Notes under the pieces: generated by a model | Told to the model about the DNA's origin: nothing | Database searches by the model: none | Seen by the model: only the letters and a program-made list of their open reading frames with translations | Position numbers and translations under genes: made by a program | Part shown: positions 26,276-51,071 of the stretch, one piece after another | How positions within the stretch are numbered: position 1 is the first letter of the stretch | Layout: every line of letters starts with the position of its first letter | Assembly (NCBI GenBank): GCA_038227875.1 | Contig: JBBRPR010000019.1 | Span: forward strand, 79,807 to 143,806 | DNA length: 64,000 nucleotides | From: Planctomycetota bacterium | GTDB lineage: Bacteria > Planctomycetota > SZUA-567 > H5-PLA8 | Direction of reading: 5' to 3'

Positions 26276-28918
26276 TTACTTCTTTACCTTGGCCAGCTGA
26301 GCGTTGCCGCTCTTGCCCTTCTTTGCTGAATAGGTCAGCGACTTGGTGGCTTCGTACTTCACGTTGTTCAGATAGAGATCGAGGGTGATCGTCGCCGCCT
26401 GTTTCGAGGCATCGATGGAGGTCAGGCCGGAGTTGGCCAGGAAGGTGGCGAACGTGTTCTTGGACATCGTCACCGTGTACTTGGCCACGCCGCCGCTCTT
26501 GGACGTCTGGAGCTTGAAGGAGTTCGTGCCGCCGGCCGGGCGGCAGGTGCCCTTCTTGTCGGAGCCAGACTTGTCCAGCGTGAAGCGGCCGAGGACTCCG
26601 CCAACGCCGCCGACATCCACCAGCACCGGCTTGCCCAGCACCGTGCCAGTGAACGGAACCGTGCCGCTGAGGCTGACACTGTCGCCACCGCTCTTGGCGA
26701 AGTTCAACTTCGCGGAGAACTTCGTGACCGTCAGCGTCTGAGCCGTGCCGGCCGGGGCGCCACTGAAGGGCGTCGACGAGGCGCTGGCAGGATCGCTGCC
26801 GAAGAGCGTTTCCAGTTCGTTGGTGAAGCCGTCGCCGTCGATGTCATCCTTGTCGGAGATGATCAGCGTCGCGGTGCTCTGCGCGCCCAGCAGTGCGCCG
26901 ACGGGATTCTTCAGCGTCAGATTCACGGTCTTGAAGAGGTCCAGCGTCTTGTCGTCGAAGGTCGGCACGTTGATCGTGCGCGACGTTTCGCCGTCGAGGA
27001 ACGTCAGCGTTCCGGTCAGCGGCGAATAGTCGGTCACCGGCGTGGCCAACCCGCCGGGCGTCACCGCGGTGCCGCCCGTGCCGATGGCGTAGTCGATCGT
27101 CGCAATGCCCGTGCTGCCACCGGAACGGCTGACGGTGATCTGCGCGACATTCGTCTCGATCACCTGGTAACTGGCGGCCGAGAATTGAATCGCACCGGCG
27201 CCGGAGCCTGTCGTACCGGCCGTCTGGCTGGGGATGGCCAGCAGCCGGACCGTTGTTGCTGGGCTGGTGAGCCCCGGTACGGTGCCGAAGCTCTGCGTCG
27301 CGCCGTTGACGAGATTGACCAACTGCAGAGTGGTTCCGGCGTTGAGGATGAAGCCTCGGCCATCGGGCGCGACTTGGAAGGAGTTGACGTTGGTCAGGGC
27401 AATCGACGATTGAGTTGGGACACCGGCGTTGGTGAACATCTGCGTGTTCAACGTTCCAGCGTCCTGCGGGCTTTGCGTGGTGATCAGGGTTTTGGAACCG
27501 GTCTGATCGAGGAAGAGCAACGTGGTTGAAGCCACCCCGTTGTTCTTGTTGGTGTAGGCGGAACCGGCAAGGACGGGCGTGCGTCCGAAATTGGGATCAC
27601 CGGTGACATAGGCCGGCGCCGGATCGAGATTGATCAGCGTCGCGGTCTTTGGATCGACGCGGGCGTTGAGACCACCGTTGCTGGCGTGGATGCGGAGGAC
27701 GTCGCGGACGGGATCAAAATTCATGCTGTAGCGCAGACCACCCGACGGATTGGGCAGCTTGATCGTCGAACCCACCGCCGTGGCGGCGCCGGTCACTGTG
27801 TCGATGGTGTAGAGCCCGAAATCGTTGCCGTTGCTGGTGAGACCGTAGAGCGAGCCGTTGCTGGGGCGGAAGTCCAGTGCGACCAGGAACGAGCCATTGG
27901 GCAGGCCCGTGATCGGCGACTGAGCCACCAGGACGGCGGGGCTGGCCAGATTGAACTTGGCCAACCCGGGATTCACTTTCGTCACCGTGTTCACCACATC
28001 CTGCGTCGCACCGAAAGCGAACACGACCGGCGGCGGCGGAACGGCGATGCTCACCACCAGGTCCGGCGAGCCGATGGCCGCCAGCAGTGTCGCTGAACCG
28101 GTGGCCAGATCGATGTTGAAGAACGACGACGTCGTGGCGCCGGCTGGCTGGAGCGCGGCGAAGGCCGTCCCACTGAACGGCGAGATGGTGAAGCCCGCGT
28201 TGTCGCCGATGGCCACGCCCAGCTTGCCGATCTGGTTCAGGAAGCCGGAATTTCCCGTATGCGTAGTGAGGATGCCGAGTGTGGAATCGATGGCGTAGAG
28301 CGTCGAACCGGGGGCATTGACGAATTTGTTGGACTGCGTTAGCGCGACGACGTGCGGCGAGGAGGTGGCGTTGGCATCGTTGTAGGTCAGCGAGCTATCC
28401 GTTGCGACCAGCGAGCCGTTGACGGGGCTCACGCGCAAGTTCTGTCCGTTTTCGTTGTCGACGCGGAAGAGATCGCTGGCGAAGGTCGGAACGTAAGTGA
28501 AGCTGTAGTGCGAACCGGTCAGCGTCGTCGAGAAATTGGGCAGCGGGGTCTGCGGCGGCGTCTGCAGCCCGACCAGGGACGCAACGCCGGTGACCGGGTT
28601 GATCTGGTAGAGGCGGCCAGTGAAGTTCGGGACCGGCGGCGGCACGCCACCCGGCGGAGTAGCGGAGATGGCGATGCCGTAGAGTTGGCCGTTGTATGTG
28701 CGGAAGTCGATGGCGACGATCTTCTCACCGGTCTGCAGCCCCGTGATCGGCGTGGTGCTGATCAGCGTCCCCGGCGAACTGGCGTCGAAGCGGATGAGAT
28801 TGTTGGCCGCCGTGACGGCGAGCACATCCTCCGCGTGCACGCAGCTGAGTGAAGCCGACAGGCCGAGCACCAGTGCGCTCAAGACCCCCAACAGACTCCG
28901 AGACGATGACAGACGCAT
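26276..28918 (-). CDS. Secreted protein: 2x DUF4394-like + Calx-beta + DxDGDG motif + conserved C-terminal domain
   Basis: Signal peptide, ITGLQTGEKIVAIDFR..NGQLYGI and ITGL..LVALDFRPSNGSLYGL, IQFSAASYQV.E...GTLTFLDGETSRTINV (Calx-beta), DIDGDGFTNELE..GSDP. Confidence 0.85.
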   Translation of the reverse strand: MRLSSSRSLLGVLSALVLGLSASLSCVHAEDVLAVTAANNLIRFDASSPGTLISTTPITGLQTGEKIVAIDFRTYNGQLYGIAISATPPGGVPPPVPNFTGRLYQINPVTGVASLVGLQTPPQTPLPNFSTTLTGSHYSFTYVPTFASDLFRVDNENGQNLRVSPVNGSLVATDSSLTYNDANATSSPHVVALTQSNKFVNAPGSTLYAIDSTLGILTTHTGNSGFLNQIGKLGVAIGDNAGFTISPFSGTAFAALQPAGATTSSFFNIDLATGSATLLAAIGSPDLVVSIAVPPPPVVFAFGATQDVVNTVTKVNPGLAKFNLASPAVLVAQSPITGLPNGSFLVALDFRPSNGSLYGLTSNGNDFGLYTIDTVTGAATAVGSTIKLPNPSGGLRYSMNFDPVRDVLRIHASNGGLNARVDPKTATLINLDPAPAYVTGDPNFGRTPVLAGSAYTNKNNGVASTTLLFLDQTGSKTLITTQSPQDAGTLNTQMFTNAGVPTQSSIALTNVNSFQVAPDGRGFILNAGTTLQLVNLVNGATQSFGTVPGLTSPATTVRLLAIPSQTAGTTGSGAGAIQFSAASYQVIETNVAQITVSRSGGSTGIATIDYAIGTGGTAVTPGGLATPVTDYSPLTGTLTFLDGETSRTINVPTFDDKTLDLFKTVNLTLKNPVGALLGAQSTATLIISDKDDIDGDGFTNELETLFGSDPASASSTPFSGAPAGTAQTLTVTKFSAKLNFAKSGGDSVSLSGTVPFTGTVLGKPVLVDVGGVGGVLGRFTLDKSGSDKKGTCRPAGGTNSFKLQTSKSGGVAKYTVTMSKNTFATFLANSGLTSIDASKQAATITLDLYLNNVKYEATKSLTYSAKKGKSGNAQLAKVKK

Positions 28919-29680
28919 ACAGCCCCTCCCTCTTTAGTGAATGCTGGTCAGTGACGCTATACATTGTGCAATAACTGCCTGAAGGGTTCAATGAAATCCA
29001 TATTAAGCTTGCTTGGCGACGCTATCTCCATGTGCAATGTTACGGAATGTTACCGAAAGTTACATGGGCGGGGCTTTTTCTTAGGTGCGCGAGGCGAGAG
29101 CGATGTTGCTCGGTGATTGGCGGAGACTGTCCGGCTAAAAGTGGTCGGTGGTCGGTTGGGGGCGTTCGGCGTGTGCATGTCGGCGTCCTTGGAGTGTCCG
29201 CGCTCGCGCGGTCGGGATCAGTCCGGCGAAAAGTTGTCGGTACGGAAGTGCCGATTGCGGATTGCGAGTGTGGGAGTTTTTGAAGCGCGTGGGCATTGTG
29301 TGCGACTCCGGGCGGCTGAGATGAAGTGCAGGCATTTTTCCGGACCGGAAGCCGGCCGATAATAGCAAGGCCTTGGTTGGATTGACGCGTGTGTTTTTTG
29401 AGCCTGATAAAGATCCAGCGGGAAGAACATCGCATATTTCCCATAGTATATAAGCGGTGATTAAACCCAAAAGTCAAGTCTTTTCTTTGAATTTAGTAAA
29501 AAAGATTTTATAATACACGATGTGCAGGCGCAGCAAGCCTGCGCGGCTGGACTGCGAGGGGTTAGGGTCAGTAGAGGCCCTATTTTCGATTGGGCCGCAT
29601 GGACGGCGTGGCTGAGTTCTCGGCGTTCAAGTGTTCCTATTATATAAAGCAATGATCGACCCCGAAAATCAAGTAGAATC

Positions 29681-29800
29681 TGGCGAATGAGCTAATTTGA
29701 GCTGAAATGAGCGTGTTTGATAGCAAATGAGAGCGAATGAGCAGGAATGAGCGTAAATGAGCGTAAATGAGCACGAATGAGCGTGAATGAGCGGAAACGA
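29681..29800. repeat. Tandem array of 12 x 10-bp degenerate units (consensus GCGTRAATGA)
   Basis: tggcgaatga gctaatttga gctgaaatga gcgtgtttga tagcaaatga gagcgaatga gcaggaatga gcgtaaatga gcgtaaatga gcacgaatga gcgtgaatga gcggaaacga. Confidence 0.9.
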
Positions 29801-29887
29801 GCGAGTGGCACGAATATTATTTTTCGTAGCACTGCCAAATCGCAAACGGCCTCGGGTTACACGGGGCGCGAGGTCCATGCAATCCGC

Positions 29888-30994
29888 TCATTCATCCGTG
29901 ACCGTAATTTCCGCGGCATTGTTGGCGTTCATGAAATGCGAAAACCGTTGAGATCCAATTTTAATCCACGTGCGGCATAGGCCAACTACACTGACTTTTC
30001 CCACGAATCGATTCGGCAGGGTCTCGAAACCATAAACAGTAATCGATTCTCCAGCAGCTAATTCTGTTATCTTCAAATCGATAAAGGATTGACCTTCCGT
30101 ATACCCGGGAGACATCGTCATATTACCGCAAGCGAATTCGGCTACTCCGGCGTGGGACGCGCTTTCGACTACGGAAACCGGCGTATCCCCGCTGTTGGTC
30201 AATGTTCCGACCACTCTGATGAACGCACCTTTCGAATAGGTGTCGTAATCGGTGGTGCACGAAAATCGCAATGCCTTTGTCTCCTTATATAACTCCATAT
30301 TTGGACGTATATGAATGTAGAGTTCATTGGAGACCAGTTCGCCTTCCCACAATTTCAATTGATGATCGGCGGCGTGATTTGAGGTCCACGTCGTTCGAAA
30401 TCTGTAAATTCCCGGATCCATTATTCGGAACGTATGCGATTCACTCCGGCTGGAATGGGCTTCCAGTTCCGCTCCGTAGTGACTGTACCTACCCATGTTA
30501 TTTTCGAAGCCGTAGATCGTCATTAATAGTGGAGCGGGTTCGTCGTGAAAGACCAGCGTGGGTTTCGAATCGTCCGGAGCAGGAATCAAGTTCCCCCAGC
30601 GCTGCGATGGCGCATACACGGCCATTTCGTCCTGGTCCCGCGTAACCAATGGAGAATTTTCGATGATTTTGGAGTCGCTGACGTTCGAGACTTTTTCGAC
30701 AACCACTATGTCTTCGCCTTGTACATAAGCAGTTCTGGACGATGACAATTCCAGCCGCAAGCCATTCGTCGCCATGGATTTTGTTCCGGCTGGCAGTAAC
30801 GACAATGGATCGTCGGGATCATGCGGATGATGCGCATCATCCAAATTGGGAGTCGAAACAACATTTTGTTGCAGGGCAACCGGCCAGGAACCCGTGCCTG
30901 CGATGCGGGACTCAAACAATATGCAGCAAAGGATCACACACCCCACCGCGAGTGCGAGCGCGGTCAGTCGAAAGTAAAGGCCAAAGCGTCCCAT
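29888..30994 (-). CDS. Hypothetical membrane-anchored/secreted protein with two Ig-like-looking modules
   Basis: 368-aa ORF with an N-terminal hydrophobic segment. Repeated pattern GLRLELSSSRTAYVQGEDI / ALRFSCTTDYDTYSKGAFI. LWEGELVSNEL. Confidence 0.7.
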   Translation of the reverse strand: MGRFGLYFRLTALALAVGCVILCCILFESRIAGTGSWPVALQQNVVSTPNLDDAHHPHDPDDPLSLLPAGTKSMATNGLRLELSSSRTAYVQGEDIVVVEKVSNVSDSKIIENSPLVTRDQDEMAVYAPSQRWGNLIPAPDDSKPTLVFHDEPAPLLMTIYGFENNMGRYSHYGAELEAHSSRSESHTFRIMDPGIYRFRTTWTSNHAADHQLKLWEGELVSNELYIHIRPNMELYKETKALRFSCTTDYDTYSKGAFIRVVGTLTNSGDTPVSVVESASHAGVAEFACGNMTMSPGYTEGQSFIDLKITELAAGESITVYGFETLPNRFVGKVSVVGLCRTWIKIGSQRFSHFMNANNAAEITVTDE

Positions 30995-31529
30995 GGTTCT
31001 CTAACGGATTGGATGGAAGGAAATTGCACGAGGACTGGCAGCAACTGCACTCGGCTTTTTCGCTGCGACTGCAAAAACGGTGGATCCATCGGTCGTGCGT
31101 CCGGCATCGCGTGAGCGCAACGGCACTGGTCTCAACGGCGAGACCAGTGGCACCCCTTGAACGCAAGCTGCTTAGAGGGCGTCTATCGCGAGGACGGTAT
31201 CCTGCGTCTAAATTGTCCCTACAGGACAATGCCGACCTCACGACACATTTTCCAGGGCTGCGTCGAAACGCCGCATGCGCGTCGGCTCGGCTTGCATTTC
31301 GCTGATGAAAATGGACCCGTTGGGTCCAACGACACGACGGACTTGGTGGCCGCGCGCAACGCATGCGTCTGTGCCGGAGCAAGACGAGCGCGATGGTCCG
31401 CGGCCGGGCTGTACGGGCTGGTTGGCGCGAGCAAACAGGGTGGAAGAAAATTCCATATTTCTTCGCATCGATTTTCGACTTCGGGAGTCCAAGCTTCCGG
31501 CTTAATCGAGGGACTGAGGAGAACGCACT

Positions 31530-32477
31530 ATGTTTGCACGTTGGAAAATGGTGGCCACAATTACGGTTACGCTGCTGCTTCTGGCTCTCGCGAGTCGGCT
31601 GCCTTTGTCGGCGTGCCTGCATATGTCGCACGGCTATTCTGGCAAGATTTCGCAACCGACGCAGGAGGGCGTTATTTTCTTCACTGGCAACCGTGAGGAA
31701 TTGGTGCTGCGCTCGACCTATAAGATCGTCGGTGAAAAACCGCCGGAACAGCTCGCCTGGGTGATGACGGTTCCAACGCTGCCCGACAGTTACCACGTTG
31801 CCGATAAAAAACTGTTCGCGGAGCTCCGCACATGGGCCAGCCAGTGGGAGCCGAAACCGCAAGCCACAAAAGACCTTGCGCTCGCCGCCAATTCAGCGCC
31901 ACTGGAACTGGCGCCCAAGGTCAACGTCGGGCCTTATGAAATTCAGCCGATTAAAGCGCGCGGCGCGGAGGCGCTCACTGCACTGAACGAGTGGTTCACA
32001 CAAAACGGTTTCACGCCAGTGCCCCCCGAACACATGACGTACTTCGTGAACAACAATTTCACGTTTCTGGCTGTGAAGACCAAGCCGAAAGCCGACGATT
32101 TCAAGAGCGGCGAAGTCAGTGAACTGCCGCCGCTACAGATTTCTTTTGCCACGGACAAGCCCTATTATCCGCTCAAGTTTTTTGCCAAGCAGGGCAACAT
32201 TTCCCTGCGGCTGTATTTGTTCACGGCCAGCGAATTGGACCTGAACGCTTCCAAGGAGACGATGACGCTGCTCCACGCCACGCAGAATCACGGCGTGAAC
32301 CGAAAGCTGAAAACGTCCAGCCTGTCCGCATCCCTGACTGCGGTACTTCCACAAGAGAAGAGCGGCGACGGCAAAGGCGCAGCAGAATGGTATTTGAATA
32401 TTCTCGAGGCCAATAACTTCAACACAGACGAAGCGATGATGAAATGGGAGAAGGACGTTTTTTTCAGCGTGAAATGA
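31530..32477 (+). CDS. DUF2330-like secreted protein
   Basis: Signal peptide ending SAC, REELVL, AWVMTVPTLP, VGPYEI, LNEWFTQNGF, FLAVK, LPPLQISF..YYPLK. RBS GAGGAG. Confidence 0.75.
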   Translation: MFARWKMVATITVTLLLLALASRLPLSACLHMSHGYSGKISQPTQEGVIFFTGNREELVLRSTYKIVGEKPPEQLAWVMTVPTLPDSYHVADKKLFAELRTWASQWEPKPQATKDLALAANSAPLELAPKVNVGPYEIQPIKARGAEALTALNEWFTQNGFTPVPPEHMTYFVNNNFTFLAVKTKPKADDFKSGEVSELPPLQISFATDKPYYPLKFFAKQGNISLRLYLFTASELDLNASKETMTLLHATQNHGVNRKLKTSSLSASLTAVLPQEKSGDGKGAAEWYLNILEANNFNTDEAMMKWEKDVFFSVK

Positions 32478-32527
32478 GCAAGCGGCAGTCAACCGCTGTG
32501 CGAGGCGCGGCCATTGCGATAATTGGC

Positions 32528-33379: not shown

Positions 33380-33422
33380 GTGAGAAATCCCCTCGGAAAC
33401 AGCAATCACTTTGCCCGGCGCA

Positions 33423-35897
33423 TCAATATCCGAAATTTGCAGCGACTGACCAGATGCCGGCGCCGACGGTATTTTCTTTGCCAACCATTACGGCGCCACC
33501 ATTGGCGGAATTCGCCGCTCCATCGGTGCGAGTCCAGACGATCGGCTTGGGATCTATCAACGTGACGCTATCCGCCGCGACCCAGCGATTTTCCTCAAAT
33601 ATCATGTCGAAACTGGAGTTATAGCGCGTAGTACTTTTCTTTCCCGATTCGGCATCCAGCACCTCCGTTTCACACGAATAGACAATCGCAGCCCGGTCGC
33701 CGGACAAGCGAATACCTTCGAGACGCGGCGCATCTTTTGAGAAGTAGTTTGCGCGCCAGGTGCGGTAGCTCAGCGCATCCAGGGGCGTGCCTGCTTTGAG
33801 GTTGTATTGTTCGATGAGGGACGCAATTGCCTTGGGGTTACCGACGGCGGCAGCCTTTTGACTTTCAAACACCTTCGATTGGGTGTCGTAATGAGTGCGC
33901 CGGCTCGCGCACCAGAAGTCACGGTACGCGGTCTCCACATCGCCCGAGCAGCCGGCTTTAAAATAGGCCTCGCAGCGGCTGCGCAAACCGCTGAGCTCCG
34001 CTTCGGCGTAATTGTATTTAATGATTCGATTCGCGCGCTCGCGAAATTCGGAAGTAGTGTGCCCGGCGGCGAGATCGGACAGTACCTTGATGGCAGCGAT
34101 GCCGCCCTTTTGCAGAGCTTTTTCGGCGGCTTCCCGGGCATCGAATTCGGCTGAATCCAGTTCTTTGGCGTGCGCGGTCAACGCCTTCCGCTCGTCATCG
34201 CTGATTTGTGCGGCTTGCACCAGCTGCTGGATCCGCGACTCCAAAAATTTGAGCGCACCCGCGGCCAGTTCCTCGGGAGAAGGAATATCCAAATCCCGGA
34301 TCACCGATGAATTCAGCCGGTCCATGATATAGGGAGTGGCTGTAATGGTCAGCATCCTGGATTGCTCGTTGTAGGAGACATCCATGCCACGCTTCAACGA
34401 CAGGAGTCGCCTGTGGATCACGCCAGGATAATTGGGCAATCTCGCACCTTCGAATTCGCCGATGTACTCGACTTCCGAACGGGCGGCCGGGAGATCTTGA
34501 TCCGTATCGTCGTATTTAGTCTCATCCAAAATCACTTTGGCATAGGTGTCGAGAAGGGAGAGCCGTGCTTCAAATGGAACACTGTTCAATGAATTTTGAT
34601 AGATGCTGCCACACGGATGCTGAAGTTTGAATTGGCGTGTGATCAACATTTCTGGCAACAACTTCAACCGGGTAGAAAGAAAGATGCCGTCCTTTCGATA
34701 ACTGATTTCATATCCACGGTAGTCGTCGACCAATTGACCCAGGATCATTGCCAGAGGCAGCGGCGCGCTGGTTGTAAACGATTTGACCTCGGGGGCCGTT
34801 GAGCCAACTTGACCTGCACCCCTCGTAAGCGAGCCCGTGGCAAGATTAATCTGCGCAATCTGGCCGGGCGTTAAAAACGCCTGAGCGCGGGCCCTTGTGA
34901 GGGCGGAGTTCATCGACATGCTGTACTTTACAGAAATCGCAGAAACGCCATCGGTCCGCAGGTCGGTTTTGCAATCTGGATCGACGTAAATCGCGACCCC
35001 GGTTTGAGACGTAAAATCCGCAAAGACTTCGGCGAGCGTTTTATCGTGGATGTCGACGGTTACGAACTTCTGCCACGCCTGCTTGAGCGTCGCCTCATCC
35101 TGCAATGGCGGGAGATACAGGTCTGCCTTGATTTCTGGAGTGCTCTCGTTGCCTCGCACCATGGCGAAGAGTCCGCCACCCAGCACTGCAAGGATCGCGA
35201 CTTGTGCCGCCCATGATTTTGCGCGCGCCCAGAACATCATCTTGATCGTCGCTTTCGATACGGCGCCCGCGGCGTGAATATCCGCAAGAGCAACCTGGGT
35301 GAGTGCGGCGGCATTTGAGGGCGCGCACGCTTCGCCGATGGACAACATCGCCGGCACGATCGCGATGGGAAGTTTCTCCTCGGCGAAGTGCCGTTGCAGC
35401 TTTTCCAATGCCCGGGAGGCGCGCTTCTCGGCGGCTTCCTCCGAGATTTTCAGGATTGATGCGACCTCTTTGAGTTTGCGTCCTTCCACGATCTTCAGCA
35501 GCACCGCTTTGCGTTCGTCGGACGAAAGCCGCCCGAGGCCTTCATCCAGAATCGCGGCGGTAAGAACGCCGGTGTCGCGTCCAATCTGGACGCCAGCCAG
35601 TTCCGTCGCCTGTCGTTCGGTCCGGCGGCGGCGCGATTCCTGTTTGAGTACATTGGCGCAGGCGAATCTGGCGGTGCGGATCAGCCAACCCGAAAGCACC
35701 GTGTCGGAACTCAGCGAGCGCGCTTTACAGGCCAAGACCACGAACGTGGCCTGCGCGGCGTCCTCGCACAAATGCGCATCCCCGAGTTGCCTGTGGCAGA
35801 GCATCCTCACGAAATTTGCGTAACGACGGACGATCTCCTCAAACGCCTCTTCCGAGCCGTTCCTGACGAACTCCTGCAGCAGGCCCCAATCGTTCAT
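33423..35897 (-). CDS. ECF sigma-70 factor with TM segment and large extracytoplasmic extension
   Basis: MNDWGLLQEF..SEEAFEEIVRRY, EDAAQATFVVLA, LSGWL, region 4 KLKEVASILKISEEAAEKRASRALEKL, TM VAILAVLGGGLFAMV. Confidence 0.88.
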   Translation of the reverse strand: MNDWGLLQEFVRNGSEEAFEEIVRRYANFVRMLCHRQLGDAHLCEDAAQATFVVLACKARSLSSDTVLSGWLIRTARFACANVLKQESRRRRTERQATELAGVQIGRDTGVLTAAILDEGLGRLSSDERKAVLLKIVEGRKLKEVASILKISEEAAEKRASRALEKLQRHFAEEKLPIAIVPAMLSIGEACAPSNAAALTQVALADIHAAGAVSKATIKMMFWARAKSWAAQVAILAVLGGGLFAMVRGNESTPEIKADLYLPPLQDEATLKQAWQKFVTVDIHDKTLAEVFADFTSQTGVAIYVDPDCKTDLRTDGVSAISVKYSMSMNSALTRARAQAFLTPGQIAQINLATGSLTRGAGQVGSTAPEVKSFTTSAPLPLAMILGQLVDDYRGYEISYRKDGIFLSTRLKLLPEMLITRQFKLQHPCGSIYQNSLNSVPFEARLSLLDTYAKVILDETKYDDTDQDLPAARSEVEYIGEFEGARLPNYPGVIHRRLLSLKRGMDVSYNEQSRMLTITATPYIMDRLNSSVIRDLDIPSPEELAAGALKFLESRIQQLVQAAQISDDERKALTAHAKELDSAEFDAREAAEKALQKGGIAAIKVLSDLAAGHTTSEFRERANRIIKYNYAEAELSGLRSRCEAYFKAGCSGDVETAYRDFWCASRRTHYDTQSKVFESQKAAAVGNPKAIASLIEQYNLKAGTPLDALSYRTWRANYFSKDAPRLEGIRLSGDRAAIVYSCETEVLDAESGKKSTTRYNSSFDMIFEENRWVAADSVTLIDPKPIVWTRTDGAANSANGGAVMVGKENTVGAGIWSVAANFGY

Positions 35898-38161: not shown

Positions 38162-39793
38162 TTACTTTTTCGCCAGCAGCCGCAAGATGGCCGCGTTGCC
38201 GCGCGCATAATCGGCGACGCTTTTTCCGCTTTTGTTGCGCGCATGCTTGTCGGCGCCGTGTTCGAGCAGCCAGCGCATGGAAGCCACGGAGCCTTTTTTC
38301 GCGACATGCATCAGCAGAGTCGCTTGCATCTCATCGCGCGCATCGAGGTTCGCGCCGCGCGCGGCGAGCAGTTCCATCACGGGAATGGGATCTAGCTTCG
38401 AGCGCGTCTTCGCCAGTTGCAGCAGGGGCGTCAGGCCTTCTTCGTCGAGCGCATCGGGCTTGGCGCCGCGCTCAAGCAGCAACGTGATCAGCGGCAGCTT
38501 GCCGCTGCGCACGGCGTAGTGCAGCGCCGTGTGGCCGTGGCGGTCGCGATCGTCGAGATTCGCGCCATAGCTGAGCAGCACGTTGACGCGATGAAGTTCG
38601 TTGGTGCTCACGTCGGGCCGACAGGCGCGCGGCAGCATCCATTCGGGAACTTTCTTGCCGCTGGCGATCAACAGATCGGCGATCGGTCTCTGCGCATCAT
38701 CGAGTCTGCCGAGGTAACCGGCGCGCTGGACTTCGGCGCCGTGTTCGACGAGCGCCTTCACGAGATCGAAGCGGTTCATCACGACTGCCATGGTCAGCAG
38801 CTTGCCGCTTTGCGCTGCGACTGCGGCGCCGCGTTCGAGCAGCAGATTCACACAATCGATATTCCCGCCGCAGACGGCGTGGACGAGCAGGGATGCCTCC
38901 TGAAAATCGTCGGCGGGGTCGATCGCGTTCAAAAGTTTGGGGTTGCGGTCGAGGAATTTGCGGAGCGAGGCCAAATCGCCGAGCCACGCGCCGGTGAAGA
39001 CATCGTCGATCGCTCCGTGCTCGATCAAGACGGGAACCAGCGCGGGCTGCCACTTCTTCGCCAGCGCCAGGGGCGTGACGGAGACACCCGTTCCCAGGTG
39101 AACCTGGTCGCAGGCCATGGTGGTTTCCATGGGATCGCAGCCAGGCAGATTGGGATTGGCGCCCGCGAGCAGCGCCGTCTGTAGAATCTTGGGGCGGTTG
39201 CGATAGACGGAAATCCAGACCAGCGACTGGCCGTGCAGCCCGCGGCCTTGGGCAAGCGCGGGATTTTTTCGCAGCGCTTTGCAGACGGCCTCGGTTCGTC
39301 CTTTTGCGGCATCGGACAAAACTGACGCCAGCCGCACCAGTGCCGGGTCCTGGACGCCGTCGCAGTGCCGGTTGAGATCGGACTCCTTCGTTTCAGGACT
39401 GTGGATCATGGATTTGGCGATGCGCGCGAGCAGACGCATGATGGGATCGGGATCGGCGCCGCGGGCTGCGAGTGCTTCACGCATGCAGCGCAGCCACGCG
39501 GCGGCCGTTTTCGGGCTGATGTAGCGGGGCTGATGCCGGCGCAACAAGCCGCCGTCGAACTGGTCGGAATACTCGCGCTCACCGCCAAACCACTGCAGAA
39601 AAAATCGTGCAGCTTCAGCGTGGTTGAGATGGCGAAAGGCCAAGCGGAGCACCGGGTCCTCGCCGATGCGCCGATAGAGATCCTCAATCAGCGCCGAGAT
39701 GCCCGTGCGTCCGCCCAGAGCTTCGAACAGCTTCGGGTCGGGGTACTCAACGAGCGCCTCACCACGGTGGCGGAGTTCTTTGTGGTCTGTCAT
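38162..39793 (-). CDS. Truncated (2/2) hemoglobin domain fused to ankyrin repeats
   Basis: LFEALGG..LIEDLYRRI..DPVL, FLQWFGG..YS, LRRHQP, AAWLRCMREAL, followed by ankyrin repeats (GHTALHYAVRSG, GLTPLL). Confidence 0.85.
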   Translation of the reverse strand: MTDHKELRHRGEALVEYPDPKLFEALGGRTGISALIEDLYRRIGEDPVLRLAFRHLNHAEAARFFLQWFGGEREYSDQFDGGLLRRHQPRYISPKTAAAWLRCMREALAARGADPDPIMRLLARIAKSMIHSPETKESDLNRHCDGVQDPALVRLASVLSDAAKGRTEAVCKALRKNPALAQGRGLHGQSLVWISVYRNRPKILQTALLAGANPNLPGCDPMETTMACDQVHLGTGVSVTPLALAKKWQPALVPVLIEHGAIDDVFTGAWLGDLASLRKFLDRNPKLLNAIDPADDFQEASLLVHAVCGGNIDCVNLLLERGAAVAAQSGKLLTMAVVMNRFDLVKALVEHGAEVQRAGYLGRLDDAQRPIADLLIASGKKVPEWMLPRACRPDVSTNELHRVNVLLSYGANLDDRDRHGHTALHYAVRSGKLPLITLLLERGAKPDALDEEGLTPLLQLAKTRSKLDPIPVMELLAARGANLDARDEMQATLLMHVAKKGSVASMRWLLEHGADKHARNKSGKSVADYARGNAAILRLLAKK

Positions 39794-43430: not shown

Positions 43431-43568
43431 ATCGAGAGACTAATGAGATGGAGCGCGCAACGCAATCGTGCTCGCAGTGGGTAAGCAGCTTGCGCCGCGC
43501 CATTCGTCAAACTGATCGTTGTGCCGGACGTGATTGCGGTATTTAATACGCACGGAGGAAAAAGCGAT

Positions 43569-43979
43569 ATGGATATTCAACGCAGTGGTTCCAAGCCATC
43601 CAACAAAGGCCCGGCTGACTGGTTTACCGGAACGGTGCGGATTGATCCGTTATTTCAAGCTGCCGCTCCGGCACGCGGGGCGGGCAATCATGTCACATTT
43701 GAGCCGGGTGCTAGAACCGCGTGGCACACGCACCCGCTGGGGCAGACGCTGATTGTCACGTCCGGTTTCGGCTGGGCGCAACGGTGGGGCGGCCCGGTCG
43801 AAGAAATTCGTCCCGGCGACGTGGTTTGGTTTCCGGCGGGCGAAAAGCATTGGCACGGCGCGACCTCCACCACGGCCATGACGCATATTGCCATTCAGGA
43901 AAGTCTCGACGGCAAAGCGGTCGACTGGTTGGAGCATGTCAGTGACGAGCAATACCAGGCCCGCAAGACAAACTCATAG
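43569..43979 (+). CDS. Cupin domain protein
   Basis: [69 protein letters not shown]. Confidence 0.93.
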
Positions 43980-43992
43980 GAGCATTAAAACC

Positions 43993-45054: not shown

Positions 45055-45281
45055 CGATAAGCGCGCCGGAAAATGTTAGTTCCCGCACCGCGATATAATA
45101 ATGTCATGGCGCAAATTTGCGCCCCGATCGTCTCCTTCGAGCTTACGCCGGAGGATCTCCAGCGAGATCGCGAACGCAGCGGCGCAGATTACCGTTCAAC
45201 GCGCGCGGTATCCGGAAAAGTTGGAGCAGATGACAGGGCGTCAACCTCAGCGGAGGGTTGTTGGGCCAGAATAGGACAACT

Positions 45282-47186
45282 TCATTTCACCAGTTGTTCC
45301 GCGACCGTGGCCAAATAGCGCAGCCGTTCCGCGTTGGCTTCGGAAAGGTCTGGATAATCCTTCTTGAGCGTCTCGAGCGTGGAACTCACGCTGCCGGCTC
45401 TTCCGTTTTTCAATGCGGTTTCGAGATCGTTGACGGCGGCTTCGAATTTTAAAAGTCGTTTCTGCGTGGCGCGCGCGTCGACGTATGCGGCCCAGGCCGG
45501 AACTTCGTCCTTCTTGAGCCGCCGGAGTAATTGCTGCGCGCCTTCGGAATTGCCGAGACCGAAAAGATACGCCGCCTTGTCCGCGGCCTCTGCCGGCTTC
45601 GATTCATCGACGCCCAAGGCCTTGACGAAAACGCTTTGAGGTAACGCGGACAGATCGACAGCCAATTCGACGCCTTGTGATTTGACGTAGACTTTGCCAT
45701 CCGTGATTCGCGCGATCTTGCCGCGCATCTTCGGCTTTTCGATCTGTACGTCTTCGGCAGGCGGAGATTTGGCGAGGTTTTCAAGGGCGCGGCTGTGGAG
45801 CGCCTGCGCCTTCTCAAGCACAGTTCCCAGTAATTGCAGCTCGGGAGCGGAAGAACCCTTTGTGATGCGCAGCGCCTGTTCCAACTTCTGTGCGGGGTCG
45901 AAATCCTTCTTCATCATTTCTTCGACGCTGTCACAGGTGCGGATAGCGACGCGTTGAACTTCGCTGACGACCGGCGCAAAGGCGTGGCGCGTCCGGGCAA
46001 TGATCTCCACGCTGTGGATCATGTACCAGAATTCGTGCTCCATCGCGGTCTCGTTCAAATTGCTGATGCGGAATTCGTTCTTTCCGCCCTTCAGCAGCCC
46101 CGCCGCAAGTGGGTAGCGCTGCTCGGTCCAAACATACATTTGCGTGGCGGTATCGTTGCCATTGAAGGCTTCCTGGCCATTGATGGCGAAGACGATGTGC
46201 GACGATGGCTTTTTTCCCTCGAACAAACTCCAGACCACGATTGTTCCGGCATCGTAGAGGTCAGGCTTGAGCTCAAAAGTCGCGATCATGGTATGGCGCG
46301 TGGAGTTCTTGCCCCAGATGGCTTTGGACGCTTTGTCTTTGCCGGCGAATCCATGGTATTCTCCGCCACCCTTAAAGTCGCTCCAGAGCAGCTTGCAGAC
46401 CGAACTTGCGTTGCCCAGGTCCAACTCCTGAGTTCCCGGCGGCAATTCCGGCTTCGCCAGAGGTGCTGGCGCAGTTTCGACAGGGGCAGGCTCGGCGACC
46501 GGCGCCGGTTTCTCCACCGCAACAGGCGGCGTGGCGCGTTCGAGTGGATTGGGCGGCGTGTCCGGCGCGGGTGGAGCGTTTTCGATAATTGTTTTCGCCG
46601 GCGTTGAAGCAACCGGCGGCGTGGGCTTGACGGTCTTCACGTCGGTTGCGCGCGGCACTTCCGGTTTGACGACGTCGTGTGTTCGTACGATTGGCGTCGG
46701 CGATGGGGTGGACGGTTGTACGCTCGGCTGCGTTCGGGATGTGCTTTCGCTGGCCGCCATTTTCTTATCAGCGGCGGTGCCGTGCGATCCAAAAATTAAA
46801 ATGAGAGCGGAAACAATCAGCACCAGTCCGCTTGCGCCGATGAGGACCATCATCTGTCGCCGATTGACTGCGACTTGAGGTGCCGGCGCAAACGCAGGTG
46901 GATGGGACGTCCGCAGATGTCCCTTGCTGGTTCGGGCTTCGGCGAGCTGTGGAAGTGTGGCGCTACCCGTGGCCGGCCGCATGGCGGTGCGGGACTTGTT
47001 TGATCCTGATGGAATTCTTGCGGGCACTTGCGCAGCTGCGGTTGCGGATGCGTCGACTTTTCCAGCCTGGTTCGCAGCGCAACCCGCGCAGAGCGCCCGC
47101 GATTCGTCAATCTGGATGGCGGTATTTGCTTCGAAGTCGGCGGCGGGAATTCGCACACTGCAGATATCACAATAATAAATCAGCAT
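45282..47186 (-). CDS. Hypothetical bitopic membrane protein with N-terminal CxxC..CxxC zinc finger
   Basis: MLIYYCDIC...LCAGC, TM VLIGASGLVLIVSALILIF, Pro-rich linker, beta-rich domain, helical C-terminus. Confidence 0.8.
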   Translation of the reverse strand: MLIYYCDICSVRIPAADFEANTAIQIDESRALCAGCAANQAGKVDASATAAAQVPARIPSGSNKSRTAMRPATGSATLPQLAEARTSKGHLRTSHPPAFAPAPQVAVNRRQMMVLIGASGLVLIVSALILIFGSHGTAADKKMAASESTSRTQPSVQPSTPSPTPIVRTHDVVKPEVPRATDVKTVKPTPPVASTPAKTIIENAPPAPDTPPNPLERATPPVAVEKPAPVAEPAPVETAPAPLAKPELPPGTQELDLGNASSVCKLLWSDFKGGGEYHGFAGKDKASKAIWGKNSTRHTMIATFELKPDLYDAGTIVVWSLFEGKKPSSHIVFAINGQEAFNGNDTATQMYVWTEQRYPLAAGLLKGGKNEFRISNLNETAMEHEFWYMIHSVEIIARTRHAFAPVVSEVQRVAIRTCDSVEEMMKKDFDPAQKLEQALRITKGSSAPELQLLGTVLEKAQALHSRALENLAKSPPAEDVQIEKPKMRGKIARITDGKVYVKSQGVELAVDLSALPQSVFVKALGVDESKPAEAADKAAYLFGLGNSEGAQQLLRRLKKDEVPAWAAYVDARATQKRLLKFEAAVNDLETALKNGRAGSVSSTLETLKKDYPDLSEANAERLRYLATVAEQLVK

Positions 47187-47447
47187 GGAGTACAAATCCG
47201 GCGTTTAATGAGAACTTTCAAACGTTGATTGTAGTGCAATATGCTTGTTTTTATACATGGAAATGAAATCGACTCTGTGGACTCTTCGCCAATGGAGCGC
47301 CGAGCTGTCGAAGAGTGGAAGAATCTTCCAATAAACTACACACGTGCACCATAATTTTTGAACTGATGTATCTTTGACTATTGACACTTATTGATGTCAA
47401 CATACAAGTGGCCGAACATCGATTTTATTTAAATTTGGAGGTTATAC

Positions 47448-50400
47448 ATGCGTTTTCAACCTGCTCATGTTGTTCTGATTGCCCTGTTGACACTCGCCGG
47501 TGGAATTCGCGCGGCAACCACTGATTATCCCACAATGGGTAACAACCCTGCGCACACAGGATATCAACCCGGCCTGACTGCTGCGCCATTGGTCGCGGGA
47601 TGGTCGGTCCAGGTGGATAGTACGACGCCAACGCCACAGGCACTGCAGCAGCCGTCGATCGCCGGGAACTCGTTATTCGTTACGCCGAGGACTTATTTCG
47701 GCGCCACTTATCTTGCTTCATACAACGTCCAGACCGGTGCTCAGCAGTGGCGTTACACGTTCACCGTTGCCGACAATGTCACCAGCCCGACGTACGATAG
47801 CGGCCGAGTCTACGTCATGCGCTGCAATCACTCGACAGACTCGCAGCTTTGGAGCTTTAATTCATCGACCGGGTTGCCGGTGTGGTCGAGTAGTTACCTA
47901 GTCCAGTGGGATGAGGCACATGCCCCCACTGTGGCCAATGGCGGCGTCTTTGTCATGGGCGGCTCTTACGGCGGAACATACTGTTTCAATCAAACAGACG
48001 GATCTCAACGATTCTTCGCACAACCGATAAGTTATCCGGACTGGTGGGACGAGTGGACACCCACATACAGCAACGGGAAAATGTACGAATGGCAGGGCGG
48101 AAAGTTTGCGGAGCACAACGAAACCACGGGTGCGGTCAATTGGAGCATTGATCTCGGATGGACCTGGAACGGCTGGTCCATGGATACCGATGCGGTCATT
48201 GCCAACGGTGTCGCGTACCTCGTCGGCAGCCCGAACCTGTATGCTGTGAATCTCGCCACGCATACCAAACAGTGGCAGGTCAATGGAAACTATTCAGGAA
48301 CGCCCGTCGTGGCTAACGGGGTGGTTTACGCCATCAATGGTCAGCAAGTGCAGGCCTACGACGCGGCGACAGGCGTCTGGCAAACGAGCTACATCGCCGA
48401 CCAGCCGCTGTATTGGCAGCCGATCGTTACCGATAACATGCTCTACGTTTCCTCCATCGACACCAGCGGTTCCAACAAGCCTGCGACGTATCTTTTCAAT
48501 CTGGGCACCACTGTTCCGGTGCAAAAGATTGCCTATGGTGGAAAAATCAGTGTGGCGGGTGGCAAGCTGTTCATCGGCGGAACGGATGGTTACCTGCGGG
48601 AATTTGAAGCGCCCCAAGTGACGGTCACCGCGACCGACGCCGTTGCCACCGAAGGCTCGGCGAGCGACCTCGGCCAGATTACGGTGTCGCTCTCGCGATC
48701 CTCGTCGACCAATCTGACCATCAACTACGCGCTCACCGGCGTGGTCAACGGCGTCGACATCGCTACTCTTTCGGGATCCGTGAGCATCCTGGCGGGCAAC
48801 CTTTCGGGAACGATCAATATCACGGCGCTTCCCACCGCCGCGTCCAACGATCGCACGCTGACGTTGACGCTGTCAACCGGCGCCGGGTACGGTGTGGGGA
48901 CGACCAGTAGCGCAGCCGTGCAGATTCGCAAGCCACGCCTGGTGCTCAGCGGCATCGGCTCGTCCGTGACCGCGGGCGTGCCTCAGAACTTTAACCTCAC
49001 CGTTGTGGACAGCGCCAATGCCACGTTGACGTCCTTTACCGGACCTGTCACGTTCAGCAGTTCGGATGCTCAGGCCATTGTGCCTGCCAACTACACGTTT
49101 GTGGCCGGCGACAACGGCACACATACGTTTACTAATGGAGTCACGCTCAAGACTGCAGGCTCAAAATCACTGACGGCCGGACTGCTGGGCACGGTCATCA
49201 CCGCCACGCAGTCGATCACTGTCAATCCGGCTGCGGCGAGTAGTTATGTATTAAGCGGACCCACTGTGGTCACGCGGGATGTCGCAGCAAATTTCACCCT
49301 TACGGCTAAAGATCCGTTTGGCAACGTGGCCACCGCTTACGTGGGCACCGCGCACTTCAGCAGTTCCGACGGTGCCGCAACGCTTCCAGCCGATTACACA
49401 TTCACTGGCGGCAACGCGGGCGCGCAGACAGTGGCGGTAACGTTTCACACGGAAGATCGCGCCGGACTGACGTACCTCATTGCAACAGATACCGTGACGG
49501 GATCGATCACCAGTACACTCAGCAACATCACGGTTAATCCGCCGAAACCGACAGTCACTCCAGCCACGCTGCAAAGCACGGCGGCCAGCAACTTCAACTA
49601 CGCGATTGTTGCCAACGAGTCGCCAACATCTTATAGCGCCACGAATCTGCCTTCGGGCGTGACGATCACGGGTAATGTGATTTCAGGATCCGTGAATATT
49701 GCCGGTGTGTATTCCATTACAATGACGGCTGTCAATCCGGGCGGAAGTGGATCGGCCATCCTCACTCTGACCATTAATCCGGGGCCGGCCGAAACGCTAA
49801 CGGTCAAGGGATTCCCCTCGCCCACCCCCTCCGGAGTTTCCGGCGGATTTGATGTCTCGGCCTTGGACCACTATGGCAATATTGCCACGGGCTACAACGG
49901 AACGGTTCATATCAGCAGCACCGACAGTGCCGCGGCGCTCCCCGCGGACTACACGTTCGTCGCATCGGACAAAGGAGCGAAGCACTTCACCGCGACGTTC
50001 AACACCGTCGCCACGCAATCGCTGACCGTGACCGACACCGTCACTGCCTCGATCAACGGAACGCAATCCGGTATTTCGATCACCATGCTGCCGCCGGTCA
50101 TCACCAGCGCGCTAAGTGCCACGGCAACCTTGGGCCAGTTGTTCTCGTATACCATCACCGCCAACGGAAAACCCGTCCCCATCTACGACGCGACTCCGTT
50201 GCCGGACGGGTTGGCGCTGGCGAACGGGGTGATCAGCGGTTCGCCGACGGTGAGCGGCGTAATGATGATCACATTGAAAGCGACCAATTTGGCCGGAGGG
50301 GATGTGAAAGTCCTGACTCTTACGATCATCAAACCCTCGGGCAAATCCAACGCGACACCGCAATTCGCTTCGTTGCCGACGGCGACTCCCAATCCCGCGG

Positions 50401-51071
50401 AGGCCGGAGCGCCGGTATCATTGACGGCAGAAGCCAGCGATGACGATTCCATGCTGCTCTACAGTTGGGACTTCGGCGACGGCACGACGGGAAGTGGCGG
50501 CAGCGTCAGCCATGTGTATGCGAAGGCCGGCATTTACGATGCGCGTGTTACCGTAACGGACGGAGTGGCCACTGCGACGGATACTGTGCGCGTGGCGGTG
50601 AATGGCGCAGCGGCCAGCGCATCCACCAATGCGTCCCAATTCACCATCACCAAAGCGTCGCTCAAGCTGAATTTCTTGAAAGCTGACAACGATGCGCTCT
50701 CTCTTTCCGGAACGCTTCCAGTTCCTTCCGGATTCTCACCAGCGGATTCGGAAATCCTGGTGATGATTGGCGCGTTTGAGGACACGCTGACACTGGATGG
50801 CAAGGGTAAGGGTACCACGCCAATTTCAAGCGTGAAGCTTACGGGAAAACTGGTGGCCGGTGCATATACGTCCAGCCCGGTGAAGTTCACTTACGCATGC
50901 AAGAAGACCGTGCTGATCGACGCCCTGTCCGAATTCGGGGCTACGAATGCCAACGTGACCGGCGTCCGAATCACGCTGCCGGTTATGATCAGCGTGAATG
51001 GGATGACCTACCTCAGCAACTCCAAACTGACCTACACGGCCAAGCAGGGCAAGAGCGGCTCGGCCAAGTAG
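47448..51071 (+). CDS. Large secreted protein: PQQ-like beta-propeller, Ig-like repeats, PKD domain and conserved C-terminal domain
   Basis: Signal peptide, GNNPAHTG, TGAQQW/TGAVNW blades, three copies of FSSSD..A.LPADYTF, YSWDFGDG (PKD). RBS GGAGG. Confidence 0.88.
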   Translation: MRFQPAHVVLIALLTLAGGIRAATTDYPTMGNNPAHTGYQPGLTAAPLVAGWSVQVDSTTPTPQALQQPSIAGNSLFVTPRTYFGATYLASYNVQTGAQQWRYTFTVADNVTSPTYDSGRVYVMRCNHSTDSQLWSFNSSTGLPVWSSSYLVQWDEAHAPTVANGGVFVMGGSYGGTYCFNQTDGSQRFFAQPISYPDWWDEWTPTYSNGKMYEWQGGKFAEHNETTGAVNWSIDLGWTWNGWSMDTDAVIANGVAYLVGSPNLYAVNLATHTKQWQVNGNYSGTPVVANGVVYAINGQQVQAYDAATGVWQTSYIADQPLYWQPIVTDNMLYVSSIDTSGSNKPATYLFNLGTTVPVQKIAYGGKISVAGGKLFIGGTDGYLREFEAPQVTVTATDAVATEGSASDLGQITVSLSRSSSTNLTINYALTGVVNGVDIATLSGSVSILAGNLSGTINITALPTAASNDRTLTLTLSTGAGYGVGTTSSAAVQIRKPRLVLSGIGSSVTAGVPQNFNLTVVDSANATLTSFTGPVTFSSSDAQAIVPANYTFVAGDNGTHTFTNGVTLKTAGSKSLTAGLLGTVITATQSITVNPAAASSYVLSGPTVVTRDVAANFTLTAKDPFGNVATAYVGTAHFSSSDGAATLPADYTFTGGNAGAQTVAVTFHTEDRAGLTYLIATDTVTGSITSTLSNITVNPPKPTVTPATLQSTAASNFNYAIVANESPTSYSATNLPSGVTITGNVISGSVNIAGVYSITMTAVNPGGSGSAILTLTINPGPAETLTVKGFPSPTPSGVSGGFDVSALDHYGNIATGYNGTVHISSTDSAAALPADYTFVASDKGAKHFTATFNTVATQSLTVTDTVTASINGTQSGISITMLPPVITSALSATATLGQLFSYTITANGKPVPIYDATPLPDGLALANGVISGSPTVSGVMMITLKATNLAGGDVKVLTLTIIKPSGKSNATPQFASLPTATPNPAEAGAPVSLTAEASDDDSMLLYSWDFGDGTTGSGGSVSHVYAKAGIYDARVTVTDGVATATDTVRVAVNGAAASASTNASQFTITKASLKLNFLKADNDALSLSGTLPVPSGFSPADSEILVMIGAFEDTLTLDGKGKGTTPISSVKLTGKLVAGAYTSSPVKFTYACKKTVLIDALSEFGATNANVTGVRITLPVMISVNGMTYLSNSKLTYTAKQGKSGSAK

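Follow-up and report, generated by a model that had tools for sequence, protein, structure and literature searches.

Two genes of otherwise different architecture lie in the window, the whole 64,000-nucleotide stretch of DNA analysed, and end in the same type of domain, hereafter the tag. The first (26276-28918, minus strand; called from the ORF list, its translation and Pfam) encodes an 880-aa protein. It opens with a putative signal-peptide-like N-terminus of ~29 residues (28832..28918, minus), recognised from the sequence and a hydrophobicity heuristic, and continues with two stretches of DUF4394 (E = 1.9e-85) and a Calx-beta domain (E = 4.3e-9). A TSP3-like, aspartate-rich Ca-binding motif (residues 692-711; 26786..26845, minus; sub-threshold match to Pfam TSP3_bac, E = 0.0067) immediately precedes a Pro/Ser/Ala linker and the tag, after which the protein stops. 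This tag copy (26279..26734, minus) was delimited by translation, BLASTP and an HMM match; the HMM alignment spans residues 729-872, and the domain extends to residue 880. The second gene (47448-51071, plus strand; same types of evidence) encodes 1207 aa: a putative signal-peptide-like N-terminus of ~22 residues (47448..47513, plus; sequence and the same kind of heuristic), a weak propeller-like region, a long unassigned beta-rich region, a PKD domain (residues 979-1051; 50382..50600, plus; Pfam PKD_4 E = 2.8e-17, PKD E = 5e-17), a short Ala/Ser linker and the tag (residues 1064-1207; 50637..51068, plus; translation, BLASTP, HMM and AlphaFold2), followed by the stop codon. Twelve residues separate the end of PKD from the start of the tag.

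Judged by sequence, the two C-terminal stretches are homologous, far above chance: BLASTP aligns them colinearly along their entire length with 50/153 identities (33%), 51.2 bits and E = 8e-14. An earlier note on this DNA had proposed a domain shared by the extreme C-termini of two different exported-type proteins, and the translations reproduce the stretches it quotes exactly. Its DUF4394/Calx-beta passenger is likewise confirmed. For the second protein, described there as PQQ/Ig/PKD, the PKD domain stands, whereas the PQQ propeller is reduced to a sub-threshold match to Beta-prop_ACSF4 (E = 6.4e-4; its 19.6 bits fall short of the cut-off, 133), and no Ig family matches in Pfam at E ≤ 1.

An HMM built from the window pair only matched dozens more ORFs in the 9.3-Mb Planctomycetota genome (G000, 88% complete), and iteration to convergence yielded 113 tag ORFs with a domain length of ~145 residues. 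The tagged proteins correspond to 110 called genes and make up 4.15% of coding residues. In 106 of the 113 ORFs the tag ends no more than 17 aa before the stop codon; the seven exceptions carry 169-208 extra residues downstream of it. Signal-peptide-like starts were detected in 92 of 107 testable tag ORFs versus 973 of 2461 control ORFs by our own hydrophobicity rule, a crude one under which 40% of controls score positive. These counts agree with the expectation of the earlier note that dozens of C-terminal matches on signal-peptide proteins would be found, although its Sec signal peptides are better described as signal-peptide-like starts, identified by inspection and crude hydrophobicity rules.

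The passengers are diverse: 40 paralogues represent more than 20 different families, including GH44, subtilase, NHL propeller, glucose/sorbosone dehydrogenase, beta-helix, PATR, CBM6/35, cadherin-like, Ig-repeat and DUF4394 proteins, and two NHL proteins of the same genome (L009 and L020) bear a C-terminal tag. The NHL gene of the window starts at 62156, and the contig stops at window base 64000. PKD is present in 32 of the 40 paralogues, usually as the final known domain ahead of the tag, and in 28 of these 32 the best PKD stretch ends within 90 aa of it. The TSP3 motif scores above its cut-off ahead of the tag in 9/40 paralogues, and the pattern D.D.DG occurs in 22 of 91 upstream stretches. 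The linkers are of low complexity, rich in Gly/Thr/Ser/Pro/Ala, and show runs of (GT)n or motifs of the TSP3 type; no conserved cleavage motif was found at the passenger/tag junction of the 91 stretches. The recurrent PKD-linker-tag order suggests cassette duplication and would suit a tag that is merely a structural end-cap or folding aid, devoid of an addressing role and spread by duplication together with PKD. We regard this explanation as quite improbable, because neither the nearly invariable terminal position nor retention on so many passenger families is expected of a passive cap. Instead, one domain closing many unrelated passengers is best understood as a tag that specifies "where" rather than "what".

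The AlphaFold2 model of the tag of the PKD protein (50637..51068) is a beta-sandwich of ten strands and one helix, predicted with high confidence (pLDDT 97.4, pTM 0.90); a homodimer prediction scored 0.41 against a mark of 0.42. A small outer-membrane barrel was rejected, given that the lysines in the strands alternate with core hydrophobic residues and the protein terminates in Lys. The fold brings no named relative. At E ≤ 1 the window tags match no Pfam family, and NCBIfam yields nothing above noise; the 40 paralogues have no Pfam or NCBIfam family in common, 18 Pfam families being matched by one member each (best E = 0.0056). The best match of the tag profile to PDB sequences has E = 0.31. 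Foldseek retrieved nothing from the PDB at E ≤ 1e-3, the top match being an archaellin (E = 3.4e-3, TM 0.43), and among 48,161 chains compared with VIA-align the best Z was 6.2 (SgrA, 93 aligned residues, rmsd 3.1), followed by LEA14, TMEM106B and Ig-like domains, all within the range of common arrangements for this tool. The ESM Atlas returned unnamed clusters only (scores 0.90), with Planctomycetota as the commonest phylum for two and Binatota for one. A protein homologue search with the tag region of the window protein recovered that protein alone, and one with an alignment and longer targets gave 15 proteins, none informatively named; where the source names tagged proteins, the names are "hypothetical protein" or "PKD repeat protein". 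We found no description of the tag domain in the literature, and a passage search of PMC8567305 brought up nothing relevant. Thus, the family is unnamed, as the earlier note had it, and no known catalytic or binding family was recognised in Pfam, NCBIfam, PDB sequences, Foldseek or VIA-align. Collectively, 113 ORFs, mostly terminal and with signal-peptide-like starts, and the lack of a match to any known family define a modular C-terminal tag that is unnamed and borne by diverse passengers.

We considered whether the ~170 residues downstream of the internal tag copies (L001-L004) form a second tag copy. AlphaFold models them (pLDDT 82.5) as a beta-sandwich whose strand order resembles that of the tag; homology is unsupported, with an HMM match in only one of seven (E = 1.6e-4) and an hhalign probability of 2.8%. 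No significant PDB match was obtained for this model (best E = 4.2e-2), and archaellins, DgpB and a LEA protein recur among its weak PDB matches, much as they do for the tag model. The trailing domain is present in 16 of 41 relatives, all 16 of them tag-bearing, and, in the phylum sample of 301 genomes, in only six, each from the window's own family. As a candidate partner of the tag it was rejected, since beyond this order its occurrence does not track that of the tag. At their N-terminal end, the trailing-domain proteins resemble VCBS/FG-GAP/propeller repeats, a lead from the Atlas only.

The tag and its passengers differ sharply in charge. In this genome, tag copies have a median pI of 10.16 and a net charge of +11, with pI > 9 in 97/100, whereas the 600 residues upstream have a median pI of 4.8 (4 of 104 copies, with fewer than 150 passenger residues, were left out of these statistics). 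Lysine accounts for 9.7% of tag residues versus 1.8% in the passengers, which, together with the predicted all-beta sandwich, supports the earlier description of the domain as Lys-rich and free of a transmembrane anchor. Strands 1, 5-8 and 11 show an alternation of basic and hydrophobic columns; basic columns are scarce in the 107-132 hairpin. Conservation is highest at Asp18, at several glycines and at the final Gly, positions that look structural and reveal little of any binding site. That conservation falls mainly on glycines, turns and core hydrophobics is what a structural end-cap would show, but one would not expect such a cap to keep a charge of +11 against acidic passengers in nearly every copy. 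Within the tail, conservation peaks in the final strand and its preceding Gly (Gly140 in 104/104 copies), and 62/100 proteins end in Lys. Among eight copies from eight genomes of other families, net charge reaches at least +10 in two (Arg-rich, from loci of 69-73% GC), is +6 in one and at most +3 in five. The charge is therefore not a family-wide property, and an electrostatic mode of action may be special to the lineage of the window. Lysine-specific chemistry, such as cross-linking via the C-terminal Lys, is disfavoured, as Arg replaces Lys in the high-GC relatives.

Beyond this genome, the tag was found in 2733 clusters world-wide at E ≤ 1e-3. It is C-terminal in 147 of the best 149 representatives, five of which carry tandem tag pairs. 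Thus, the strict C-terminality assumed in the earlier note holds for the large majority here and in this genome, but not for the seven internal copies or the tandem pairs. The tag is carried by 17 of 41 relatives and by 28 of 301 Planctomycetota genomes; its passengers in other genomes include an M10 peptidase and a PhoX/phytase-like protein. High positive charge, a stable beta-sandwich and flexible linkers, as in carbohydrate-binding modules, together with the tandem copies and the many passengers that are polymer-degrading enzymes or adhesin-like repeats, would fit a general sticky module. Such a module would attach not to the envelope of its own cell but to a polyanion or matrix outside (extracellular polysaccharide, DNA, mineral or particle surfaces, prey or plant material) and would gather enzymes and adhesins on substrates or in biofilm. 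We consider this unlikely: peptidases, phosphatases, dehydrogenases, glycosidases and propellers share one tag, which argues against substrate targeting; the tag is almost exclusively terminal, whereas carbohydrate-binding modules occur at either end and internally; and no carbohydrate-binding or lectin family or fold was matched in Pfam or among the fold-search matches listed.

The preferred reading is envelope localisation, and its main rival is a secretion signal that an undiscovered outer-membrane translocon would read in the periplasm and that might then be removed, as are type IX secretion system (T9SS) CTDs in Bacteroidota. The resemblance to type A CTDs (Por_Secre_tail, PF18962/TIGR04183) is considerable: both are beta-sandwiches (predicted, for the tag) at the extreme C-terminus of Sec-exported (here Sec-type) proteins, encoded by tens to more than 100 scattered genes per genome; their passengers vary greatly, and an Ig-like or PKD domain frequently lies immediately upstream. 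The conserved last strand with its preceding Gly140 and the frequent terminal Lys would suit a recognised signal, and the patchy, lineage-restricted occurrence among relatives and across the phylum is that of an accessory system. However, at 145 aa and ten strands the tag is larger than T9SS CTDs (~70-100 aa) and comes from a different phylum; Planctomycetota are not known to possess T9SS. PF18962 has no match in the genome, its controls being silent too, and no T9SS CTD appears among the 50 VIA-align matches listed, of which the best (Z 6.2) are generic Ig-like sandwiches, or among the Foldseek matches listed. The SprA/Sov model TIGR04189 has no match in this 88% complete genome, the control genomes being equally silent. 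No candidate was found for the translocon, processing enzyme or lattice that the earlier note took to be implied. Neighbouring genes gave no candidate either: none is conserved across seven low-copy loci of other families, no barrel-type gene recurs beside tagged genes, and only ECF sigma genes are mildly enriched next to the tagged genes of this genome (17 from a 97-member family; p = 0.002, uncorrected). The junction without a cleavage motif and the tandem copies also count against a secretion signal, translocation signals not being known to occur in tandem, and we rate it as improbable. Tandem copies are usual in avidity-based anchors (SLH, GW, LysM). T9SS CTDs are reported to be linked to anchoring on anionic lipopolysaccharide (PMC12860637; see also PMC8545088 and PMC5562754).

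Other known systems share single traits with the tag. Dockerins, including the GC-type (NF041540), are C-terminal modules on many exported enzymes, joined by flexible linkers, which dock enzymes to a shared partner, and the tag, likewise, often adjoins a Ca-binding motif (TSP3). The dockerin, however, is a small Ca-binding fold as opposed to the beta-sandwich of the tag; no cohesin-like repeated partner was found, and NF041540 has no match in tag domains or anywhere in the genome. With the GW modules of InlB/Ami and the S-layer SLAP domain of Lactobacillus, the tag shares a basic C-terminal character on acidic surface proteins. GW and SLAP modules, with a pI of about 10 and often in tandem, hold non-covalently, by charge, to anionic wall polymers. 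Yet these are Gram-positive anchors of different fold and size, whereas the host of the tag is a diderm planctomycete and charge varies among tag-bearing lineages; the window tags have no Pfam match to SLH, LysM, GW, SLAP or carbohydrate-binding modules at E ≤ 1. PEP-CTERM sequences, too, are lineage-restricted C-terminal tags on many exported proteins, but consist of a short motif, a transmembrane helix and a basic tail, in contrast to a soluble 145-aa sandwich with no hydrophobic helix. The exosortase model PF09721 has no match in the 88% complete genome; the control matched in one genome. In Slam/T11SS, the gene for the Slam outer-membrane protein usually adjoins the cargo gene; the Slam model PF04575 has no match in the genome at this completeness, and the control was silent.

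We put at about even the chance that the tag is an undescribed, lineage-restricted C-terminal localisation module which holds exported proteins at the cell envelope. Tagged proteins would be exported by the Sec route, to which their N-termini point. Joined to a PKD/TSP3 stalk through a flexible linker of Gly/Thr/Ser/Pro, the folded 145-residue beta-sandwich would then keep the acidic passenger at the envelope by binding some component there that all tagged proteins share. For this genome and its close relatives, outward-pointing lysines on part of the sandwich are the most likely binding surface, and candidate anionic partners, probably bound non-covalently, are lipopolysaccharide, a polymer of the capsule or wall, or an acidic receptor protein.

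How proteins are placed on or beyond the unusual envelope of Planctomycetota is poorly understood. It is conceivable, albeit doubtful, that the tag marks substrates of an undiscovered sorting pathway of this phylum, a functional counterpart of T9SS equipped with an outer-membrane translocon or attachment enzyme of its own; if so, each cell would send more than 100 proteins, or 4% of its coding capacity, to the surface by this pathway. The domain merits a family model in Pfam or NCBIfam. Because one unnamed tag closes more than 100 exported-type proteins and recurs in 2733 clusters, it offers a handle on the surface proteome, which could be predicted from sequence in uncultured planctomycetes, and a bait with which the partner or machinery might be fished out, and possibly a display tag for enzymes.

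The two window proteins that share the tag, a 145-residue Lys-rich C-terminal beta-sandwich, are encoded by an 880-aa ORF on the minus strand (26276-28918) and a 1207-aa ORF on the plus strand (47448-51071), as seen in the ORF list and by translation. The final 145-155 residues of both ORFs match exactly the C-terminal sequences quoted in the earlier note, and BLASTP aligns the two domains over their whole length (50/153 identities, 51.2 bits, E 8e-14), which bears out the proposed colinearity. The remaining parts of the two proteins are indeed unrelated to each other: according to Pfam, the passenger of the first contains two stretches of DUF4394, Calx-beta and a weak TSP3 motif, and in the second a PKD domain stops 12 residues short of the shared domain. 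The PKD part of the "PQQ/Ig/PKD" passenger thus stands, and the propeller match is sub-threshold. Both isolated tags also deserve the description "unnamed": neither matched a Pfam family at E <= 1, and NCBIfam returned nothing above noise. The NHL-repeat gene of the window (62156-64000, plus strand), proposed in the earlier note as a test case, is interrupted by an in-frame stop (62996-62998) that separates two ORFs of the same frame, and its C-terminus lies outside the assembly because the contig ends at window base 64000. A further 543-aa ORF (38165-39793, minus strand) fuses a bacterial-globin domain to ankyrin repeats.

An HMM built from the two window domains was searched against all stop-to-stop ORFs of at least 60 aa in the genome (9.34 Mb, 176 contigs, 59.6% GC, 88% completeness). 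Dozens of ORFs matched in the first pass, and iteration converged through 47, 104, 112 and 112 to 113 ORFs genome-wide. The claim of strict C-terminality holds for 106 of these, in which 2-17 residues separate the end of the match from the stop, and fails for seven, which carry 169-208 extra residues after the domain. Two overlapping ORFs, both included in the 113, contain the first and second half of the tag domain (contig C100:8796-10449, minus strand) and probably represent a single gene that a frameshift or sequencing error has split. In terms of coding capacity, the 110 tagged genes recognised by a simple gene call account for 4.15% (116,778/2,811,431 residues). The prediction of dozens of copies on signal-peptide proteins was borne out: signal-peptide-like starts were found in 100 of the 113 ORFs under a first hydrophobicity rule and, under a stricter one, in 92 of 107 tagged ORFs (>= 300 aa, 5' side intact), compared with 973 of 2461 controls (ORFs of >= 400 aa); the rule being crude, it is the enrichment over controls that counts, not the absolute figure. 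On contig C90 (2973-11661, minus strand), three tagged genes (loci L008, L012 and L011) form a same-strand tandem array, which includes two paralogues combining Big_7, PKD and the tag.

No named relative of the domain family exists, by sequence or fold, in the libraries searched. An AlphaFold2 model of the copy from the second window protein, based on an alignment of 40 copies with 20-41% identity to it, displays ten strands and one short helix (pLDDT 97.4, pTM 0.90). Foldseek retrieved no PDB entry for this model at E <= 1e-3, VIA-align against 48,161 chains yielded a flat list of Ig-like sandwiches with a best Z of 6.2, and the domain sequence profile had no match in the PDB. Member-by-member scans of the 40 copies revealed no Pfam or NCBIfam family in common, a search of the ESM Atlas with the domain returned unnamed clusters only, and no description of the domain was found in the literature searched. 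Modular C-terminal sorting or anchoring domains are, as such, an already known kind.

The passengers were surveyed with Pfam in 40 of the 113 ORFs, namely, all seven internal cases and the 33 top-scoring others. They include GH44, subtilase, glucose/sorbosone dehydrogenase, NHL/teneurin-type propellers, right-handed beta-helix/NosD, PATR repeats, LVIVD, CBM6/CBM35, He_PIG, Big_7, Big_9/cadherin-like and I-set Ig domains, as well as InlB B-repeat-like, SdrD_B and DUF5650 families. PKD domains occur in 32 of the 40 ORFs; in 28 of these, the best stretch ends no more than 90 residues upstream of the tag, and bacterial TSP3 repeats separate PKD from the tag in nine ORFs. The 60 residues preceding the domain (91 copies) form a low-complexity linker with a high content of Thr, Gly, Ala, Pro and Ser, in which long stretches of (GT)n occur; 22 of the 91 stretches contain a D.D.DG motif, and no conserved junction motif was found beyond a weak Pro at -1 (37%). 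Very long (Gly-Thr)n or Gly-rich linkers precede the tag in many paralogues, for example, at loci L010 and L033. Judging from this anatomy, a folded domain that nearly always comes last in the protein, carried behind a stalk and a flexible linker by more than 20 kinds of passengers with export signals, would most plausibly serve as an address or anchor; that it would merely form a passive cap appears unlikely.

The seven internal copies fall into four paralogues of ~860-1120 aa, in which PKD is followed by the domain and then by 170 residues, and three of ~550-600 aa with the domain in mid-protein. The former (loci L001-L004, on contigs C51, C20, C124 and C28) make up a conserved low-copy family with an N-terminal hydrophobic anchor-like segment, ~650 residues without a family (VCBS/FG-GAP/propeller-like, an Atlas lead only), PKD, the internal tag and a 170-aa beta-sandwich. 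The model of this tail (pLDDT 82.5) has a hairpin order similar to that of the tag, but profile comparison of the two does not support homology (probability 2.8%), and nothing in the PDB matched it significantly, the weak rows again including archaellins, DgpB and a LEA protein. Matches to the trailing domain, which do not imply whole-protein orthology, occur in 16 of 41 relatives, all tag carriers. We rejected it as a general partner of the tag: in the phylum sample, it is confined to six of 301 genomes, all from the window's family, and is therefore a lineage feature.

Searched against 1.84 billion representatives, the domain profile matched 2733 clusters (50% identity) at E <= 1e-3, 2024 at 1e-10 and 448 at 1e-30. 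Among the 149 best domain-bearing representatives, 147 have the domain within 20 residues of the protein end and five carry two tandem copies; in the two non-terminal cases, the usual terminal tail is followed by unrelated sequence, probably owing to gene-call or frame errors. Where tagged proteins have names at all, these are 'hypothetical protein' or 'PKD repeat protein', and the nearest genomic matches are Planctomycetota bacterium records. The domain is present in 17 of the 41 relatives, including 14 of 16 genomes of the window's own family (its own genome not counted), 2/2 of a second and 0/1 of a third family of the order, and in none of the 21 genomes from the remaining families of the class; relatives have up to at least 90 matches per genome among the best 97 scored. 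Three genomes of the window's family (G002, G007 and G010) contain a single copy or no copy at all. The domain also occurs in 28 of the 301 genomes of an even phylum-wide sample, spread over at least eight families and mostly with 1-10 matches among the best 13 candidates per genome. One 1592-aa tagged protein from another genome (G215, L053:5369-5998, minus strand) continues from the first two thirds of the tag into a conserved motif from the secretin C-terminus (E 3.8e-8 to Pfam Secretin, at profile positions 130-167). Its counterpart in genome G298, an 808-aa homologue, has a normal tag; the longer protein is probably chimeric or the product of an assembly join.

A T9SS-like translocation signal is a less likely reading. 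Models of SprA, Slam and Por_Secre_tail had no match in the 88% complete genome, the controls for these three being silent as well, and neither did exosortase and GC-type dockerin models. A homodimer prediction for the domain scored 0.41 against a mark of 0.42. Nothing suggestive was found among the neighbours around and between the two tagged window genes, which comprise regulatory and metabolic genes, ECF sigma factors with long extensions and ORFs without a family; at seven loci from genomes with one or few copies, no proteins except the tagged ones were similar across loci. We also grouped into families the 551 genes located within three genes of a tagged gene in the window's genome. The strongest signals, an uncharacterised family with 3/3 members near tags (uncorrected p 5e-4) and an ECF sigma family with 17/97 members in the same neighbourhood (uncorrected p 0.002), do not hold after correction for the number of families. 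No cognate translocon, processing enzyme or surface lattice of the kind envisaged earlier was found in the window, at the low-copy loci, among the genomic neighbours or with models of known systems. The ECF-type family of ~97 genes has C-terminal extensions of 300-650 residues, one with ankyrin and others with HEAT repeats; two such factors lie in the window (33426-35897 and 18940-21195, minus strand).

The charge of the tag was analysed in 100 of 104 terminal copies (four with fewer than 150 passenger residues were left out). The domain has a median pI of 10.16 and net charge of +11, with pI > 9 in 97 copies, versus a median pI of 4.8 for the 600 residues upstream. It is Lys-rich, as originally noticed (9.7% versus 1.8% in the passenger), with equal Arg (1.8% versus 1.7%), and Lys is the last residue in 62 of the 100 proteins. 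Basic columns (5, 9, 55, 57, 59, 70, 73, 89, 135, 138 and weaker neighbours) alternate with hydrophobic ones within strands and therefore point outward; the long hairpin 107-132 has few of them, and the top conserved positions are Asp18 (96%) and Gly140 (104/104). Seven of eight copies from two close MAGs are Lys-rich, with net charges of +11 to +17 (the eighth, +4). Of eight copies from as many genomes of other families, two, in loci with 69-73% GC, are Arg-rich (+10 and +11), five do not exceed +3 and the remaining one has +6. High basic charge is thus not universal across families and is strongest where the domain family expanded; the Arg-rich copies, set beside the Lys-rich close MAGs, indicate that the recurring trait is basic charge, not lysine chemistry. 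A general sticky module for external matrices is a further reading, about as likely as the translocation signal. Retention by binding is the reading favoured by the charge contrast together with the tandem copies, and we put at about even the chances that the tag of this lineage attaches non-covalently to an anionic component of the envelope. Judging from its anatomy, the domain, borne on a stalk and flexible linker, would then hold exported enzymes and adhesins at the envelope.
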